Below are positions 11,626 to 35,252 of a DNA stretch of 50,192 bases, one piece after another; position 1 is the stretch's first letter, and every line of letters starts with the position of its first letter. This DNA is from a virus: IMG/VR virus record IMGVR_UViG_3300034989_000079. One strand, written 5' to 3'. Made by a program: the position numbers and the translations under genes. The notes beneath the pieces were generated by a model. The model searched no databases. It saw only the letters and a list, made by a program, of their open reading frames with translations, and was not told the DNA's origin.

Positions 11626-12261
11626 ATGAATAATATTCAAGAAAATGATTTGGTAAAGAAATATATTGATATAGCAAAGGGTGTTGCAAGGTTATATTCT
11701 GCGGTTACGCCAGACCATATTTCATTCGATGATTTGTTTTCGGCTGGATTGATAGGTATTTTAAATTCTATTAGATCTGGAAAAACAAGATGTGTTAAGG
11801 CAAGAGTGGTTTGGGCAATCAAGGAAGAACTGAGAAGATGTGATTTTGTAGATAAACAAAAACGAAAAAAGATCAATGATATTGAAATAGCTAAAGATGA
11901 ATTATTTGTTAAATTGGGTAGATATCCTACAGATATCGAAATTGCAGAAGAAGTTGGAATGAGTTTTGATGGATACAATAAATTTATACTTATGCATCAG
12001 GATTATAGATTATATGATGAGTTAGAAGATGTAGTTGTTGAAGATGAGGCTTTTTATGACGGTATTTTAGTTCGAGAAGTAGTTACTCGTGCGAATTTAA
12101 GTGACCGAGAATTGAAAATTTTAAGATTACTGTATGTTGATGGGTATACGTTGGCAGAGGTAGGCAAACAAATAGGAGTAATAGAATCGAGAGTATGTCA
12201 GATAAAAAAAGAGATTTTGGCAAAGATAAGTGATGCTATTTCTGTTGATAAAGTAGCTTGA
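11626..12261 (+). CDS. RNA polymerase sigma factor (sigma70 family, regions 2 and 4)
   Basis: DDLFSAGLIGILNSIRSG (region 2-like) and GYTLAEVGKQIGVIESRVCQIKKEILAKI (region 4.2 HTH with the SRV.QI signature). Confidence 0.65.
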   Translation: MNNIQENDLVKKYIDIAKGVARLYSAVTPDHISFDDLFSAGLIGILNSIRSGKTRCVKARVVWAIKEELRRCDFVDKQKRKKINDIEIAKDELFVKLGRYPTDIEIAEEVGMSFDGYNKFILMHQDYRLYDELEDVVVEDEAFYDGILVREVVTRANLSDRELKILRLLYVDGYTLAEVGKQIGVIESRVCQIKKEILAKISDAISVDKVA

Positions 12262-12279
12262 TGTTTTTTTAAAAAAAAG

Positions 12280-12308
12280 TTGACTAAACGTGTTTTTTGT
12301 TGTAAAGA
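12280..12308 (+). promoter_or_regulatory. candidate sigma70-type promoter: TTGACT with a weak -10
   Basis: aaaaaaaagTTGACTaaacg upstream of the CCA gene; -10 is poor. Confidence 0.3.
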
Positions 12309-12347
12309 TCATAGTAGGATGATGACTAAGATGGTCATGGAGATACT

Positions 12348-13685
12348 ATGTTAGATACAGTCAAAGATTTTGCAAATAAGTATTTTAAATGTTTTCCTGT
12401 ATATCTTGTAGGAGGGGGTGTCATAGATTATCTTTGTGATCGTATTCCAAAAGATTTTGACATAGAAATTTATGGTTTATCAATAGACGAAATTTCAGAC
12501 ATATTAAAATCCAATGGTTTTGACGTTAATTTTGTTGGGGCAAGTTTTGGAATAATCAAGACAGTATACAAGAATATTGATTTGGATATTTCTGTTCCCA
12601 GGGTAGATAATAGAATTGGGAAAGGTCATAAAGGATTTGATTGTTCTTTTCCTTCCAATATTTCGCCGAAAGAAGCGTCAAGAAGAAGAGATTTGACGAT
12701 TAATTCAATTTTTTTAGATCTTCATACTTTGGATATTCATGATCCATGGGGAGGAGTTGAGGATTTAAGCAAGGGTGTGCTGAAAGCAACTGATTCAACA
12801 ACATTTATTGAGGACCCGTTGAGGGTGCTTAGGGTTATGCAACTGTTAGCAAGGAAGGGAAAAAGTGTTGATTCAGATACTGTTGACTTATGTATTAGTA
12901 TGGTCGATAGTTTTGTTGATTTGCCCCAAGAAAGAGTTTTTGAAGAGTTTGTGAAGCTTTTTAGTGCTAGTCGTCCATCAAAAGGGTTAAGGTTTTTGGT
13001 AGATTCAAATTGGATTTTTTGTTTTCCAGAGTTGGAAAGCCTTATTGGATGTAAACAACATCCAGAATGGCATCCAGAAGGAGATGTCTGGGAACATACT
13101 CTAAGAGTTGTTGATTGGGCAGCTAAAGAGAAAGAAAATTTGGATGAGGATTGGCGTTTGGCGTTCATGTTTGGGGCATTGCTACATGACATTGGGAAGC
13201 CAGTGGTTGTGTCTGATGATTTTACTTGTCATGGCCATGATTTGGCTGGAGAGCCATTGACTAGGTCATTCATGGAAAGGATTACAAGGGATAAGGAACT
13301 GATTGATAGAGTTGTTTGTATTGTTAGAAATCATATGAGATGTGGACAACTTAGTTTTGGCGATGCTAAGAAATCAGGATGGAAGAGATTACATAATGAC
13401 CTTAGGTTGGATGTTGCAGCATTTCTTTCTAAGTGTGATTCATTGTCTAGATATAGTGAAGAATATGTATCAGGAATGGAATATGAGCCAAGTATGGTTG
13501 CTTTGCAGTATTTTGATGAATTTGGGAAAAAGCCAATTAAGCCTGTATTGATGGGGAGACATTTGATTGATGCAGGAATGAAGCCTGGCCCAGAGTTTGG
13601 TAAGATCTTGGATAGGGCATATGATATCCAAATTGAAGACGGAATTTCTTGTCTAGACACATTGTTGAGGTTGGTTAATGGGTGA
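12348..13685 (+). CDS. CCA-adding tRNA nucleotidyltransferase with C-terminal HD domain
   Basis: GGGVIDYLCDRIPKDFDIE (GGxVRD head motif), RRDLTINSIF, HD motif LLHDIGK. Confidence 0.7.
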   Translation: MLDTVKDFANKYFKCFPVYLVGGGVIDYLCDRIPKDFDIEIYGLSIDEISDILKSNGFDVNFVGASFGIIKTVYKNIDLDISVPRVDNRIGKGHKGFDCSFPSNISPKEASRRRDLTINSIFLDLHTLDIHDPWGGVEDLSKGVLKATDSTTFIEDPLRVLRVMQLLARKGKSVDSDTVDLCISMVDSFVDLPQERVFEEFVKLFSASRPSKGLRFLVDSNWIFCFPELESLIGCKQHPEWHPEGDVWEHTLRVVDWAAKEKENLDEDWRLAFMFGALLHDIGKPVVVSDDFTCHGHDLAGEPLTRSFMERITRDKELIDRVVCIVRNHMRCGQLSFGDAKKSGWKRLHNDLRLDVAAFLSKCDSLSRYSEEYVSGMEYEPSMVALQYFDEFGKKPIKPVLMGRHLIDAGMKPGPEFGKILDRAYDIQIEDGISCLDTLLRLVNG

Positions 13686-19874: not shown

Positions 19875-20123
19875 ATGAATAAGATAGATTGGCCTAGTGG
19901 TAAGAAGATGCATGTTCAGAATATTGTTCTTGCACCACCTAATGGACGTCACGTTCATTCTGAATTGGTGGAAGAGGCTTACAAAGAATATTGTCAGATG
20001 TTCGGAAATAGTCAAACGTTAGAAAGATTACAAGAGAGGGGTGGATTTGATATAGTTGAATTGGCTACTTTTTTGTATATGAGGATAAAGCGGTTAGAGA
20101 AGAATATTGTAGAAAAAAGTTGA
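19875..20123 (+). CDS. hypothetical protein
   Basis: ORF tiling; its stop codon overlaps the -35 of the next promoter. Confidence 0.5.
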   Translation: MNKIDWPSGKKMHVQNIVLAPPNGRHVHSELVEEAYKEYCQMFGNSQTLERLQERGGFDIVELATFLYMRIKRLEKNIVEKS

Positions 20124-20148
20124 CAAATTTTGTGTTGTATATAATATA
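20120..20148 (+). promoter_or_regulatory. sigma70-type promoter: TTGACA, 16-nt spacer, TAATAT (aaaagTTGACAaatttt...)
   Basis: consensus hexamers upstream of the 20197 gene. Confidence 0.65.
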
Positions 20149-20196: not shown

Positions 20197-21429
20197 ATGA
20201 AAAGTTTAACTAAAAAGCAAATCGAAAAATTATCAATTTATAGAGATAAGTGGATACGAATAGGTACATCTATATTTGATATTGATGATCGTAAAATAGC
20301 TGAAAAGTATATTGATGATGTATATTCGATTGCTGGATTTGAACCACCAAAATTTAAGATATGGTTATCTTCTCCTTATAGTGGTGTAATTGGAGTTGTG
20401 TTATTAAAACAGATTAGGGCTCAGGTTGGGGATCAGATTTGGGATCAGATTTGGGATCAGATTAGAAATCAGATTGTGGAACAGGTTGGGGAACAGGTCG
20501 GGGAACAGGTCTGGGAACAGGTCGGGCAACAGGTTGTGGAACATGTTGGGAATAAGGTTGGGGATCAGATTAAGGATCAGATTTGGTTTAAGAGTTTAGG
20601 TAAGGTTGTGAATCAGATTAGAAATCATGTTGGGGATCAGATTTGGGAACAGATTAGAAATCAGATTAGAAATCAGATTAGAAATCAGGTTGGGGAACAG
20701 GTTGTGGAACAGGTTGGGGAACATGTTGTGGAACAGGTTGGGAATCAGATTGATGGTCAAAATTTGACATTTAACATTTGGCATCAGGTTGATGTTCAAA
20801 CCTTTCAATGTGGATATGGAATTCATGATGCTAACTTTTTATCATTTTATGATTATTTTGATAGTGAGGTATTATATAATTTGAATGAAATTAGGCCATT
20901 AATAAATTTGTCTAAATATGTTGGTTGGTGGTGGCCTTTTGAAAATGTAGTAATTTTTACGGATAAACCAATATTTGTTTGTTGTGATGACCGAGGTAGG
21001 CTTCATCATGAGAATAGGATGGCATTAGAATATTCTGACGGATTCGGGATATACTCATGGCATGGCATTATGGTTTCAGAACAAATTATTATGAAACCAG
21101 AAACTATAACGTTAGACCAAGTAGTGAAAGAGAATAATCAGGAGATTCGTCGTATTATGTTGGATCGGTATGGATGGGATAGGGTTTTGTGTGATTTGCA
21201 TGCTTGTGTAGAACATGAGGATAATACAGGAAAATTGATATCTACTTATAGGCTTGGAGAATATTTAGCTGGTGAAGATGAGATAGCAAAATTTGTATTA
21301 GTAGTTGACCCTTCTACTAATCGGAAATATTCATTAAGAGTACCACCCGAAACAAAAACAGCTAAAGAGGGAGTGGCATGGACATTTGGGCAAAAAGAAG
21401 ATGAGTATAATCCAATAAAGGAGACATAG
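20197..21429 (+). CDS. tetrapeptide-repeat protein: about 45 tandem xQ[IV]x units (DQIW/EQVG/NQIR) plus a Trp/Cys-rich C-terminal domain of unknown function
   Basis: 12-bp DNA tandem array in frame; C-terminal region GWWWPF...FVCCDDRGRLHHENR. Confidence 0.6.
   Translation: MKSLTKKQIEKLSIYRDKWIRIGTSIFDIDDRKIAEKYIDDVYSIAGFEPPKFKIWLSSPYSGVIGVVLLKQIRAQVGDQIWDQIWDQIRNQIVEQVGEQVGEQVWEQVGQQVVEHVGNKVGDQIKDQIWFKSLGKVVNQIRNHVGDQIWEQIRNQIRNQIRNQVGEQVVEQVGEHVVEQVGNQIDGQNLTFNIWHQVDVQTFQCGYGIHDANFLSFYDYFDSEVLYNLNEIRPLINLSKYVGWWWPFENVVIFTDKPIFVCCDDRGRLHHENRMALEYSDGFGIYSWHGIMVSEQIIMKPETITLDQVVKENNQEIRRIMLDRYGWDRVLCDLHACVEHEDNTGKLISTYRLGEYLAGEDEIAKFVLVVDPSTNRKYSLRVPPETKTAKEGVAWTFGQKEDEYNPIKET
20407..20760 (+). 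repeat. coding tandem array of about 29 x 12-bp units (cag-att/gtt-ngg-gan)
   Basis: seen directly; creates a spurious minus-strand ORF at 20596-20826. Confidence 0.85.
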
Positions 21430-21430
21430 A

Positions 21431-21721
21431 ATGTATAGGCAAGGTGATTTATTGTTTGTGATGGGCATAATCAAGCATGATGCAAAAGAACAAAAAGATG
21501 GTGTTTTGGCATTAGGCGAGGCAACTGGACATCGTCATCGTATTGAGGATCGTTCAAATGCAATGATGATGGTAATTGGTACTATGGCTTATGTGCGTGC
21601 AATACAAGAGGCTAATATAGTACATGAGGAGCATGCTACGATTACATTGCCTCCTGGAGATTGGGAGGTAATTAAACAGCGTGAGTACCATCCAGATGGA
21701 TGGTTTCATGTATTAGATTAG
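21431..21721 (+). CDS. hypothetical protein
   Basis: ORF tiling. Confidence 0.5.
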   Translation: MYRQGDLLFVMGIIKHDAKEQKDGVLALGEATGHRHRIEDRSNAMMMVIGTMAYVRAIQEANIVHEEHATITLPPGDWEVIKQREYHPDGWFHVLD

Positions 21722-22048
21722 ATGATTTCTGATAATAGAAATATATATATTTTAAACATTCTTATTGCTTTTGTATGGTTGTTTAATTTTTTTGATGCTG
21801 TTTTTACGTGGTATTGGTTGAATAATGGTGCAGAAGAGTTGAACTGGATTATGAAGACATTGTTTGATGTTCATCCAATTTTGTTTTTCGTTTGTAAAAT
21901 CGGTTTTGTGACTATTTTTTTGATAATGTTGAAAAGGTGGTTGAAAGAACATTTTCTTGCCAGAGTAGGAATTGTATTGTGTTTTGTTATTTATTCTTTT
22001 GTGATTTTATGGCATTGTTGTGGTGCATATTATATTTTAGGTGATTAG
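21722..22048 (+). CDS. integral membrane protein (about 4 TM helices)
   Basis: hydrophobic segments ILNILIAFVWLF, ILFFVCKIGFVTIFLIML, IVLCFVIYSFVILW. Confidence 0.5.
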   Translation: MISDNRNIYILNILIAFVWLFNFFDAVFTWYWLNNGAEELNWIMKTLFDVHPILFFVCKIGFVTIFLIMLKRWLKEHFLARVGIVLCFVIYSFVILWHCCGAYYILGD

Positions 22049-23847: not shown

Positions 23848-24058
23848 AGAATGTCCTCATTGTAGATATGATAAGCAAAGTGTTTACGAGAAAGAGAGAG
23901 AAGGATTTGGGTGGGGTCCTGTGAAATATTATAGTGTAATTTGTGATAGGTGCAAAGCTCAAGGTCCTGAGATGGTTACACCAGATGATGCATGGATAGC
24001 ATGGGATGATAGAGGTGAAGGAAAAATGGGACTTAGATTTCATAGATATGGAAGATAA
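23831..24058 (+). CDS. Lar-family zinc-ribbon protein, paralog 2 (TTG start)
   Basis: MEKNHRECPHCRYDK...YYSVICDRCKAQGPEMVTPDDAWIAWDDR. Confidence 0.5.
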   Translation: MEKNHRECPHCRYDKQSVYEKEREGFGWGPVKYYSVICDRCKAQGPEMVTPDDAWIAWDDRGEGKMGLRFHRYGR

Positions 24059-24254
24059 GCATAAAAAATGTCCTTTTTGTGCTCATGATAAGCAAAGTAT
24101 TTATTATAGAGAAACAGATGGATTTGGATGGTTTTCAGTAAAATATTACAATGTTCGTTGTAATAGTTGTGGTGCAGAAGGTCCCGAAGAACGTACAGAA
24201 GAAGAGGCTTGGAAAGCTTGGGACAAAAGAAAAAGAAAGAGTGATAAAAGTTGA
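24048..24254 (+). CDS. Lar-family zinc-ribbon protein, paralog 3 (tandem duplicate of the previous gene)
   Basis: MEDKHKKCPFCAHDK...YYNVRCNSCGAEGPEERTEEEAWKAWDKR; N-terminus parallels paralog 2. Confidence 0.5.
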   Translation: MEDKHKKCPFCAHDKQSIYYRETDGFGWFSVKYYNVRCNSCGAEGPEERTEEEAWKAWDKRKRKSDKS

Positions 24255-29357: not shown

Positions 29358-29637
29358 AGATCTTGATAAATGTATAGCAATAATTCGTGAAGTATTTGGT
29401 AATCCTAGGATATTGATTGAATCAGTGATTGGTCCAGCAACTCATTATGATGATGATCCAGATTATTATATTGAAATGACGCTTTATCCATCAAAGTTTT
29501 TGGGTGATATATCAAAAGAAGAATTTAGAAAGAAAAGTTTGAAAGTGTATTCTATATTGAGACAAAAAGGATATAGAGATATTTGTGAAAAAGTTGTGAT
29601 TAGAAAAGGTTGGAGTGGAAAGGAAGATAAAAAATGA
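29332..29637 (+). CDS. hypothetical protein
   Basis: ORF tiling. Confidence 0.5.
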   Translation: MKRMKEKFKDLDKCIAIIREVFGNPRILIESVIGPATHYDDDPDYYIEMTLYPSKFLGDISKEEFRKKSLKVYSILRQKGYRDICEKVVIRKGWSGKEDKK

Positions 29638-30347
29638 AAATTGTAGAACCATCAGTTGAAGTTATATTTTGGGCTCCTGAAGATAGTGGAACATTAGAGG
29701 AAGGAATTGAGAAAGCAGCAAGAACTTGTTACAAAAGTGAAGGGAAAATTGGTGAAGGAACAGCGGATAAACTGATTAGGAAACTCAGAAAAAGTGGTCA
29801 CCATGCTATGCTTGAATTTGGTTATATAATGGCAAGGATTATTGCGGACCGAGGTTTGAGTCATGAATTGGTAAGGCATAGATTGGCTTCCTTTGCACAG
29901 GAATCGACACGATGGTGCAATTACAATTCTGAAAGATTTGATTCTGAAATTTCTGTAATAGAACCTCCAGGATTGACAGAGGAACAGAGAGTCATATGGT
30001 CTGTAGCAATGGCTGATGCTGAAAGACATTATATGACTTTGATAAAAATTGGTGCTAAGCCACAAATAGCTAGGTCGGTTCTTCCGATAGGGTTAAAGAC
30101 TGAGATTGTTATTGGGGCAAATCCAAGGGAATGGAGGCATATTTTTAAGATGAGGTGTGATAAATATGCTCACCCTATAATTAGGAGTATAATGATAGAG
30201 ATTTTGTTGCAGTGTCGTGATAAATATCCTGCTATTTTTGATGATCTTTTTGATGATTTGCCTGATGAACTTATAAATAAATGGTCGGAATTAAAAGATA
30301 AAACTATGAGAGAAGTGATTATGAAACATGTTGTTGACAAAACATGA
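29634..30347 (+). CDS. thyX: flavin-dependent thymidylate synthase ThyX
   Basis: ThyX signature RHRLASFAQES (RHR-x7-S) plus conserved GHHAMLEF; ATGA-coupled. Confidence 0.75.
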   Translation: MKIVEPSVEVIFWAPEDSGTLEEGIEKAARTCYKSEGKIGEGTADKLIRKLRKSGHHAMLEFGYIMARIIADRGLSHELVRHRLASFAQESTRWCNYNSERFDSEISVIEPPGLTEEQRVIWSVAMADAERHYMTLIKIGAKPQIARSVLPIGLKTEIVIGANPREWRHIFKMRCDKYAHPIIRSIMIEILLQCRDKYPAIFDDLFDDLPDELINKWSELKDKTMREVIMKHVVDKT

Positions 30348-34526: not shown

Positions 34527-35252
34527 ATGAATAATTTTATTGTATTTGAAGGTATTGATGGTGTTGGAACTACAACACAATCATATATGATGTATGAATA
34601 TTTAAAAGATTTGATTGGAAAGAATAAAGTTGTATGGACAAAAGAACCAACTGATTCTTGTATCGGATATTTAATACGAGAGATTTTAGGTGGTACAGAA
34701 GAGAAGCCTTCTGGTAATGCCGTGGAATTACTGTTTAGAGCAGATAGAATAGACCATGTTGAGGATTTTATAAGACCAAAGATAGAGGAAGGGAAATGGG
34801 TTATTTGCGATAGATATTATCCTTCAACACTTGTGTATCAAGGAATTCAAAATACTATGTTAGATAGTATAAAGCAGATGAAGCGTATGTTTTATCATTT
34901 TATTGATAATGATGGAATTGTTATTCCTATTTTAACAATTATTTTAGATGCTGATGTTGATATTTGTCAGAGCAGAATAAAAGATAGAGATACTCATCGT
35001 GAAATTTATGAAGATATAGAATTTCAATTAAAGGTAAAAGAATTGTATTTAGAGTGGGCTAATGTCGATTGGGATAGAATAGCTGGGGCACATGGTAAAA
35101 CTGATGAAATTATTTATCCATGGAATAAAAAAATAGTTGTTGATGCGAACGGAAGTGAAAAAGAAGTTCATGATAGATGTAAAAAAGTATTATGTGATGT
35201 TTTATCTGATGCTTTAGGTATCGATTGGAACAGTTTAGAAGGTGTAAAATGA
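34527..35252 (+). CDS. tmk: thymidylate (dTMP) kinase
   Basis: P-loop FIVFEGIDGVGTTTQ and TKEPTDSCIGYLIREIL match Tmk motifs (FI.fEGidGsGKsTQ; TREPgGt.iGe.IR). Confidence 0.65.
   Translation: MNNFIVFEGIDGVGTTTQSYMMYEYLKDLIGKNKVVWTKEPTDSCIGYLIREILGGTEEKPSGNAVELLFRADRIDHVEDFIRPKIEEGKWVICDRYYPSTLVYQGIQNTMLDSIKQMKRMFYHFIDNDGIVIPILTIILDADVDICQSRIKDRDTHREIYEDIEFQLKVKELYLEWANVDWDRIAGAHGKTDEIIYPWNKKIVVDANGSEKEVHDRCKKVLCDVLSDALGIDWNSLEGVK

Follow-up and report, generated by a model that had tools for sequence, protein, structure and literature searches.

We show that the gene at positions 20197 to 21429 of the viral DNA stretch IMGVR_UViG_3300034989_000079 (50,192 nucleotides, or nt, in all; called the window here) encodes a member of the DUF6745 family, which Pfam has already catalogued and which is unstudied, and that its array of tetrapeptide repeats is an optional insert at a fixed site between the two lobes of a single globular body. 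What is new here is a family-wide picture of interchangeable tetrapeptide arrays at this single insertion site, a partner gene that is nearly obligate in phages, and a two-position diversity signature that the family has in common with an unrelated, experimentally characterized phage protein. We regard the identity and architecture of the protein as very well supported. More tentatively, and with somewhat less than even confidence, we read the array as an adjustable interaction arm and the gene with its partner as a module of counterdefense.

The C-terminal 207 residues of the protein match the DUF6745 profile (PF20530) along its full length, with residues 204 to 410 aligned to profile positions 7 to 206 of 206 (E value of 2e-47; 161.6 bits against a cutoff of 27). 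All of the motifs of the family, namely, GWWWPF, RLH, YxDG, NxExRR, and LRVPP, are found in it, and in a 60-sequence alignment H270 is invariant, while D281, G282, N314, and E316 are conserved in at least 90% of the members. The N-terminal lobe has its own conserved motifs across the family (LTxEQ..RDKW..IGLST..Y..AGL.PP..W..SP). On this sequence evidence the gene is a DUF6745 family member, and nothing sets it apart from the rest of the family. An earlier reading of the same stretch, made from the sequence only and without database searches, had rightly called the C-terminal domain conserved-looking, and it missed the DUF6745 identity, the partner gene, and the interchangeable repeat flavors described below.

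The family is large. A word-indexed search recovered 122 homologues, almost every one of them a PF20530 protein and none with an informative name, and an exhaustive profile search returned 14,230 cluster representatives at E values of ≤1e-3 and 10,464 at E values of ≤1e-10. Locus scans with identical search patterns, taken from a 10-sequence alignment, located 67 loci in viral contigs versus 3 in species-representative genomes. Cultured phages with the gene include Microcystis phage Ma-LMM01 and its relatives; a further copy (gp38) is present in the Mycobacterium abscessus prophage prophiGD102-1, and others are carried by plasmids of Streptomyces, Nocardia, Nostoc, Aulosira, Deinococcus, and Mycolicibacterium. 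The Ma-LMM01 (gp174) and prophiGD102-1 copies are like the window gene in the C-lobe profile, the N lobe, and the adjacent partner. Two complete DUF6745 units stand in tandem in three members (P0284, P0260, and a 773-amino-acid (aa) protein of a Mycolicibacterium plasmid at L092:3240-5561). The PHROGs search placed the window protein in an unannotated family, with nothing above noise among tail or fiber families; the NCBIfam search returned only noise and the PDB sequence search only low-complexity matches. We found neither a solved structural relative of the DUF6745 body nor a paper in the literature that deals with DUF6745 or with the peptide strings of the array.

Tandem Repeats Finder detects in the window gene a single 12-bp array (20410 to 20752; period of 12; 28.6 copies; 75% matches; score of 166), by far the strongest tandem array in the whole window. 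The gene and array coordinates of the sequence-only reading stand, and the array is real; the count of about 45 repeats does not hold, as reading in register gives 30 units, and the range of residues 71 to 188 cited for it itself accommodates about 30. In register, the units follow the grammar V (15 units) or I (13), then G (10), R (6), W (5), or V (5), then E (10), N (8), or D (6), and finally Q (24), H (3), or K (3). Two irregular units, IWFK and SLGK, leave the register unbroken. The periodicity is of four residues and no other: lag-4 residue identity is 0.47 within the array against 0.04 in the rest of the protein (none of 10,000 shuffles reaches 0.47), and within the array the lag-5 and lag-3 identities are 0.03 and 0.04. 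The 30 units comprise 22 distinct 12-mers, and the array has a net charge of −6.

That the array belongs to no standard repeat class, as had been surmised, is borne out by the Pfam, NCBIfam, and PDB searches, which gave no match to a pentapeptide, collagen, or any other catalogued repeat family. A pentapeptide repeat is rejected by the period of 4 rather than 5 and by the lack of any PF00805, PF13599, or PF01469 match at an E value of ≤1, and collagen-like Gly-X-Y triplets are rejected by the lag-3 identity and by the confinement of glycine to the variable position of some units. Neither is the array an artifact of assembly. Over 5.3 kb, two independent assemblies (SRR12668987 in Logan and JGI 3300037297) agree with the window at 99.92% identity and contain this 410-aa gene with a single synonymous change, and four more distant relatives have an in-frame array. 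Two further open reading frames (ORFs) over the array, of 57 aa (20426 to 20599, plus strand) and 76 aa (20596 to 20826, minus strand), are repetitive by-products of the 12-bp repeat and not genes. A weak match to the PADLOC candidate defense family PDC-S29 (E value of 1.3e-5; residues 125 to 184; 20569 to 20748) lies within the array only, is missing in repeat-less relatives, and is probably an effect of repeat composition.

The nature of the insertion is seen most directly in the members that lack repeats. These proteins of 274 to 298 aa (e.g., P0015, with 297 aa, and P0069, with 283 aa, as well as P0062, P0073, and P0082) connect the N-terminal 70 residues to the helix with the motif YGxHDAxWLSFYDYF by only about 10 to 20 residues. 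Other members, including P0308 (about 570 aa), P0106, P0108, P0117, and Ma-LMM01 gp174, have long nonrepetitive inserts where the array would be. Since repeats and long nonrepetitive inserts occupy the same site, this site is the variable insertion point of the family. An AlphaFold2 model of the repeat-less P0015, built from an 80-sequence alignment, is a single unit with a mean predicted local distance difference test score (pLDDT) of 92.7 and a predicted template modeling score of 0.83. In the model of the window protein, the N lobe is predicted with similarly high scores (Table 1), and the C lobe mostly exceeds 90. According to the DSSP output, the N lobe has a single β strand, at residues 53 to 57, which can pair only with strands of the C lobe; the two lobes thus make up a single fold, and hence the array must exit the body and come back to it as an arm. 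We infer this protruding geometry from the models, in which the array consists of helices at pLDDT values of 40 to 66, so that the arm is probably helical. Two structural suggestions of the sequence-only reading fail here: no β-solenoid evidence speaks for a novel solenoid, and a contractible linker is at odds with N- and C-terminal parts that form one body and that repeat-less relatives join by a short connection. We also considered the irregular FKSLGK units as the tip of a hairpin and rejected the idea, as they are off-center in a relative (L004) and as the AlphaFold2 helix is unbroken there.

Arrays of quite different composition occupy the site across the family. In addition to the xQVx flavor found among array-bearing relatives, there are xSVx arrays (units ASVG, DSVW, and DSVR; L027, L040, L050, L065, L068, and L069), xAVx arrays (SAVG, SAVR, and SAVD; L045, L064, and L070), xATx arrays (AATW and DATW; L058), xNLx arrays (SNLR, SNLG, and SNLW; L075), and xQLx arrays (SQLR and others; L051 and prophiGD102-1 gp38, which has 46 units at the same site). 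The number of units per member ranges from 0 to 47 or more, and array-bearing relatives have 5 upward. Beneath these flavors lies a common unit grammar: a hydrophobic V, I, L, or T at position 1; a hypervariable position 2 that is almost always G, R, or W; a variable D, A, G, N, E, or S at position 3; and a small or polar Q, S, A, or N at position 4. The same residue is encoded by different codons in different lineages (Ser by AGC, TCG, AGT, or TCA; Val by GTT, GTA, or GTC; Gln by CAG or CAA), which argues that the constraint is on the protein and not on the DNA, and the G/R/W alphabet recurs in lineages with a GC content of 28 to 70%. We dismissed DNA mimicry as a general trait of the family since the net array charge, taken from the residue counts at the variable positions, runs from clearly negative (32 Asp versus 14 Arg in L003) to positive (12 Arg versus 3 Glu in L075).

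A comparison of five related phages (the window, L001, L004, L006, and L008) brings out the hypervariability of the array. DNA identity between these relatives is 94 to 99% in the C lobe, 85 to 97% in the N lobe, and 90 to 100% in the flanking DNA and drops to 61 to 77% in the array, which varies in length from 342 to 402 nt and is in frame in all five. The differences are insertions and deletions of whole units together with substitutions. In most arrays of more distant members, entropy is concentrated at two nucleotides of the 12-nt unit: nt 4, which opens the second codon (about 1.5 bits; NGG giving G/R/W and NAC giving H/D/Y), and nt 8, in the middle of the third codon (about 1.0 to 1.5 bits; GNC giving D/A/G), with near-zero entropy at third codon positions. 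For prophiGD102-1 gp38, the values along the unit are 0, 0, 0, 1.48, 0, 0, 0.15, 1.00, 0.15, 0.15, 0, and 0.15, and the two-position pattern is clear in 12 or more family arrays (e.g., L003, L012, L027, and L065). We read this pattern as homogenization by unequal recombination or slippage combined with diversity maintained at two residues. Multiunit block duplications in L069:5998-7185 and L040:5989-7329, such as an 8-unit block present three times in L069, point to recent unequal recombination.

The array had also been proposed as a hot spot of slippage or phase variation. The first part of this proposal stands, in the sense of gain and loss of units over evolutionary time. On/off switching finds no support, as the unit of 12 bp means that slippage alters length and not frame, and we rejected a phase-variable locus because the array is in frame in all five relatives and in the two near-identical assemblies, in which it is moreover identical to that of the window. 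One copy, on plasmid 3 of Nocardia farcinica NCTC11134 (L087:573-1932), has a QV array out of frame with the N lobe; its gene parts are spread over three frames, and RefSeq annotates only the C-terminal piece. Decay into a pseudogene, an error in sequencing the repeat, or a genuine switch of frame could explain this copy. Nowhere else in the 50-kb window did we find a copy of the array that might act as the template of a diversity-generating retroelement, and we found no reverse transcriptase among the 10 largest window ORFs scanned with PHROGs.

The window gene is followed almost immediately by the gene for a small, histidine-rich protein (Table 1), and the association extends across the family: of 78 loci searched with a profile of this partner, 70 have its homologue adjoining the DUF6745 gene and on the same strand. 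It lies upstream in 37, downstream in 31, and in overlapping calls in 2, mostly with gaps of <100 bp. Several of the 8 loci without it are apparently cut by the end of the contig or locus. Reciprocally, a DUF6745 family gene sits beside the partner in all four contigs sampled via the partner. The two adjoin in prophiGD102-1 (gp37/gp38) and in Ma-LMM01 (gp175/gp174; E value of 3.7e-31), and they are neighbors in two Streptomyces megaplasmids, Deinococcus ficus pDFI2, and a metagenome-assembled genome (MAG) of Chloroflexi; the partner is absent within 5 kb of the DUF6745 copies on Nostoc, Aulosira, and Mycolicibacterium plasmids. Repeat-less DUF6745 members keep it, and thus it relates to the body rather than to the array. 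The partner family, with at least 412 homologues, every one of them unnamed, is characterized by the motif QGD..IP..LAxGExTGHxH..HxEH..PPGxYxVxRQREY..D, in which H36 and H68 never vary, nor does the C-terminal Asp, and H34, H65, and E85 hardly do. These conserved His, Glu, and Asp residues suggest a metal site. The partner protein has no match in Pfam, PDB, or PADLOC.

Table 1. Coordinates of the DUF6745 gene, its parts, and adjoining features in the window
Feature	Positions	Strand	Basis or remark
Promoter-like site (TTGACA, 16 nt, TAATAT)	20120..20147	+	In the 73-nt gap upstream of the gene
DUF6745 family gene, 410 aa	20197..21429	+	ORF; Pfam PF20530 match
N-terminal lobe, residues 1-68	20197..20400	+	Family-wide conservation; pLDDT 90-97; outside the Pfam model
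Tetrapeptide array, 30 units of 12 bp, residues 69-188	20401..20760	+	Tandem Repeats Finder and register reading; outside the Pfam model
C-terminal lobe, residues 189-410	20761..21429	+	Pfam-matched part is residues 204-410 (nt 20806-21426)
Partner gene, 96 aa, histidine-rich	21431..21721	+	Starts 1 nt after the DUF6745 stop codon
DUF5658 small membrane protein gene	21722..22048	+	Abuts the partner gene; PF18902, E value of 1.4e-18

The surroundings of the pair are nonstructural. In a Pfam census of 150 genes flanking it in about 35 diverse loci, we found DnaB, RecA, ERF, YqaJ, DUF669, and AAA ATPases along with Dam methylase, integrases, and DUF932 (the last six times, probably all in a single related phage group); uracil-DNA glycosylase genes are likewise among the neighbors. 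The census contained no virion genes and no third conserved gene beside the pair. In Ma-LMM01, gp174 and gp175 fall into the middle-gene expression cluster B5 with an adjacent uracil-DNA glycosylase (PMC5780444, supplementary file 4), so that this DUF6745 homologue shares the transcription class of the replication genes, which is middle and not late. In the window, the DUF5658 gene is probably on the same transcript as the pair and outside the core module; it adjoins the pair only in close relatives of the window phage. The promoter-like site upstream is the best consensus match between 19500 and 22800 (10 of 12 positions), and this is weak evidence, as the number of promoter-like sites in that interval is not above that in shuffled sequences.

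Some bacterial copies of the pair have distinctive neighbors. A gene with a VWA domain directly follows the partner and DUF6745 genes in Deinococcus ficus pDFI2 (L089:4715-8152) and in the Chloroflexi MAG (L081:2062-5270), which represent two unrelated bacterial phyla, and the latter gene also has an FHA domain. In the Streptomyces megaplasmids (L086:1-5588 and L088:1-6588), the pair is divergent from an adjoining STM4012-STM4015 cluster, which comprises a radical SAM protein, a hydrolase, and two families of no assigned role. The two plasmids may be related, and this is hence perhaps one observation. A literature search on STM4012-4015 yielded nothing informative.

The window itself looks like part of a large phage; the contig of one relative is 170 kb long. 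Nearly all of its ORFs are on one strand, with all but two of those of at least 150 aa on the plus strand. The GC content is 30 to 38%, and the GC skew is positive in every 2-kb bin from 1 to 50192 (+0.30 to +0.56), which, together with the plus-strand ORFs, means that the coding strand is extremely C depleted throughout. Genes of nucleotide and RNA metabolism are found at 11626 to 13685, 29634 to 30347, 34527 to 35252, 36460 to 37365, and 46730 to 47710, the set comprising a tRNA nucleotidyltransferase, a ThyX-type thymidylate synthase, a thymidylate kinase, a DHH phosphoesterase, and another nucleotidyltransferase, and relatives also have called dCMP deaminase, QueC-like, and nucleoside deoxyribosyltransferase genes. 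A sigma factor-like gene (ORF 11626 to 12261) was identified only via its 211-aa syntenic counterpart in L001. Likewise, a homologue of Lar-type restriction alleviation proteins (PF14354) lies about 2.6 kb downstream of the gene in near-identical contigs and is placed in the window, at about 24006 to 24221, only by synteny with L084:5076-5291. The largest window ORF (40300 to 42954; 884 aa) has no PHROG match at an E value of ≤1e-5, and no tRNA or Rfam elements were found in the window.

Among known systems outside the family, the window gene resembles gp54 of mycobacteriophage Tweety, which also has a 12-bp, 4-residue array between conserved N- and C-terminal regions and is encoded in the early, nonstructural arm of its genome. 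Copy number differs between the close relatives Tweety gp54, Che8 gp57, and PMC gp51 (48, 26, and 15, respectively), and among the window relatives, too, the copy number changes while the flanks are conserved. The variable residues of gp54 (G/W/Q and S/Y) are near to the G/R/W of DUF6745 arrays, and the two-position pattern in most of the more distant arrays, like the argument that we draw from it, matches what has been published for gp54 (PMC2884959). By altering the number of tetrapeptides in gp54, the phage can evade the Phrann gp29/gp30 defense (PMC9262239). The two proteins differ in scaffold (Ala-Ala in gp54, Gln-Val in the DUF6745 array) and in that gp54, unlike DUF6745, has no known partner gene. 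In the published model for gp54, moreover, the array is a spacer that determines how two domains are placed relative to each other, whereas the DUF6745 flanks form one fold from which the array loops out, so that this model is not directly transferable. Homology was rejected: when Tweety gp48 to gp59 were searched by hmmsearch with the profiles of DUF6745 and of the partner, the best E value was 0.16.

Other repeat systems offer more limited parallels. Pentapeptide repeat proteins (PF00805/PF01469; MfpA and Qnr) also have short tandem repeats with a central conserved hydrophobic residue, and some of them act in conflict, e.g., as DNA mimics; however, they form a right-handed quadrilateral β helix of period 5, whereas the DUF6745 array has a period of 4 and a charge that is not consistently acidic. 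Variable region 2 of bbp36 of Bordetella phage BPP-1 is, as cited in the Tweety paper, a tandem array within a gene that differs in copy number from one phage isolate to another, with a 24-bp unit (a 19-bp repeat plus spacer) in an unrelated protein.

On the basis of the hypervariability signature, the chemically extreme G/R/W alphabet, the nonstructural, middle-expressed context, and the precedent of Tweety gp54, we propose that the arm would be an interaction surface that can be tuned in both length and residue pattern. As the array evolves, whole 12-bp units are gained, lost, and duplicated in blocks with the frame always kept, and two diversified residues per unit sit on an otherwise homogenized scaffold. 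The DUF6745 body would act jointly with the small histidine-rich protein, the two making up a nonstructural accessory module expressed with replication and repair genes, and the arm would adapt this conserved unit to a rapidly changing target of the host or of a rival phage. The most likely role of such a pair would be counterdefense, as in gp54; the antidefense role that had been listed among the possibilities for the gene is plausible only by this analogy. A bolder reading, which we consider very unlikely, is that the arrays constitute a modular recognition code with two specificity residues per unit, comparable to the two-residue codes of TALE or PPR proteins. Each unit may then form one turn of a helix, with V and Q/S/A as its constant scaffold and with G/R/W and D/A/G conferring specificity, the ligand may be periodic (a nucleic acid strand, a glycan, or another repeat protein), and shuffling of units may write new specificities. 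In a related vein, a targeted diversification mechanism, rather than selection alone, may make the two hot nucleotides in each unit.

Several points weigh against the counterdefense arm. The experimental precedent is that of gp54 only, and the likeness to gp54 is one of function, not of homology. Most family members in viral contigs are without an array and yet have the partner, and the core function therefore does not need the array. Copies on bacterial chromosomes and megaplasmids, some of them without the partner, would fit a cellular or defense role equally well. With respect to the arm itself, its helical nature is uncertain given the low model confidence, and 13 arrays tested for a hairpin, in which variable residues would mirror each other and W would face G, gave no signal beyond chance. 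The window array is more degenerate than most, with variation at synonymous sites as well (third-position entropy of 0.67 to 0.98). Finally, the arrays are identical in three 99.9%-identical assemblies (the window and two others), so that over the shortest times the array does not change quickly.

The most serious rival, to which we allow a modest chance, is that the pair is a defense or toxin-antitoxin-like module, acting in superinfection exclusion or abortive infection, with the variable insert as a sensor of the proteins of invading phages. Sensors in conflict systems typically have hypervariable inserts, and the compact same-strand two-gene cassette with variable gene order, its occurrence in early regions of prophages beside integrase and repressor genes, and the isolated pairs in bacterial replicons would all be in keeping with such a role. 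Against this, a search of PADLOC-DB v2 gave only scattered single weak matches, none of them consistent, for 80 DUF6745 members and none for 30 partners. Moreover, large phages that are strictly lytic, such as Ma-LMM01 and the window's 170-kb relative, have the pair, its expression is in the middle phase with replication genes, and the locus counts are heavily on the viral side. Rather unlikely, in our view, is a role as an accessory factor of phage replication, recombination, or repair, e.g., a modulator of a host nuclease or helicase, with the insert as a drifting loop outside any arms race. It would account well for the consistent position amid replication and recombination genes, for the coexpression with uracil-DNA glycosylase and replication genes in Ma-LMM01, and for the candidate metal site formed by the four conserved His residues with Glu and Asp of the partner, but it leaves the site-specific diversity unexplained.

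Two further explanations appear extremely improbable. One holds that the 12-bp array acts as DNA, either as origin iterons within a gene, as in lambda gene O, or as an on/off contingency locus, and it can point to a tandem DNA array inside a gene of a replication region and to the out-of-frame Nocardia copy. That copy may, however, be a sequencing error or a pseudogene; the unit is a multiple of three, making slippage frame neutral, and all five window relatives are in frame; it is the amino acid pattern and not the DNA that is conserved, with codons differing and residues differing at the same positions; many members have no array; and 30 to 47 copies are far above known iteron sets. The other is that of a surface protein with a repeat solenoid, be it of the virion, host range, or ice-binding-like kind. 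All that recommends it is that, in general, variable phage proteins rich in repeats often bind receptors, whereas structural genes are absent from the neighborhood in the roughly 35 diverse loci, the Ma-LMM01 homologue is of the middle and not the late class, and there is neither a β-solenoid signal nor a tail or fiber PHROG match above noise. Given the nonstructural neighbors and the transcription of the Ma-LMM01 homologue with replication genes, the host range and ice-binding-like roles that had been raised from the sequence find no support.

If the reading of the array as an interaction arm in counterdefense is right, DUF6745 and its partner would represent a very widespread and unstudied phage accessory module with more than 10,000 sequence clusters, occurring in cultured phages of Microcystis and Mycobacterium. 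Its specificity would lie in an element made of the shortest kind of peptide repeat, which simple gain and loss of units would retune, and the single experimental case of Tweety gp54 would become an instance of a general strategy in which repeat arrays act as evolvable arms on conserved effectors. Tractable systems in which to pursue this would be gp37/gp38 of M. abscessus prophiGD102-1 and gp175/gp174 of Ma-LMM01. The body, which has no solved structural relative, and the partner, which belongs to no catalogued family, are both targets for structural and functional work. Even if the reading is wrong, what remains is the documentation, across a large domain family, of a hypervariable insertion site.

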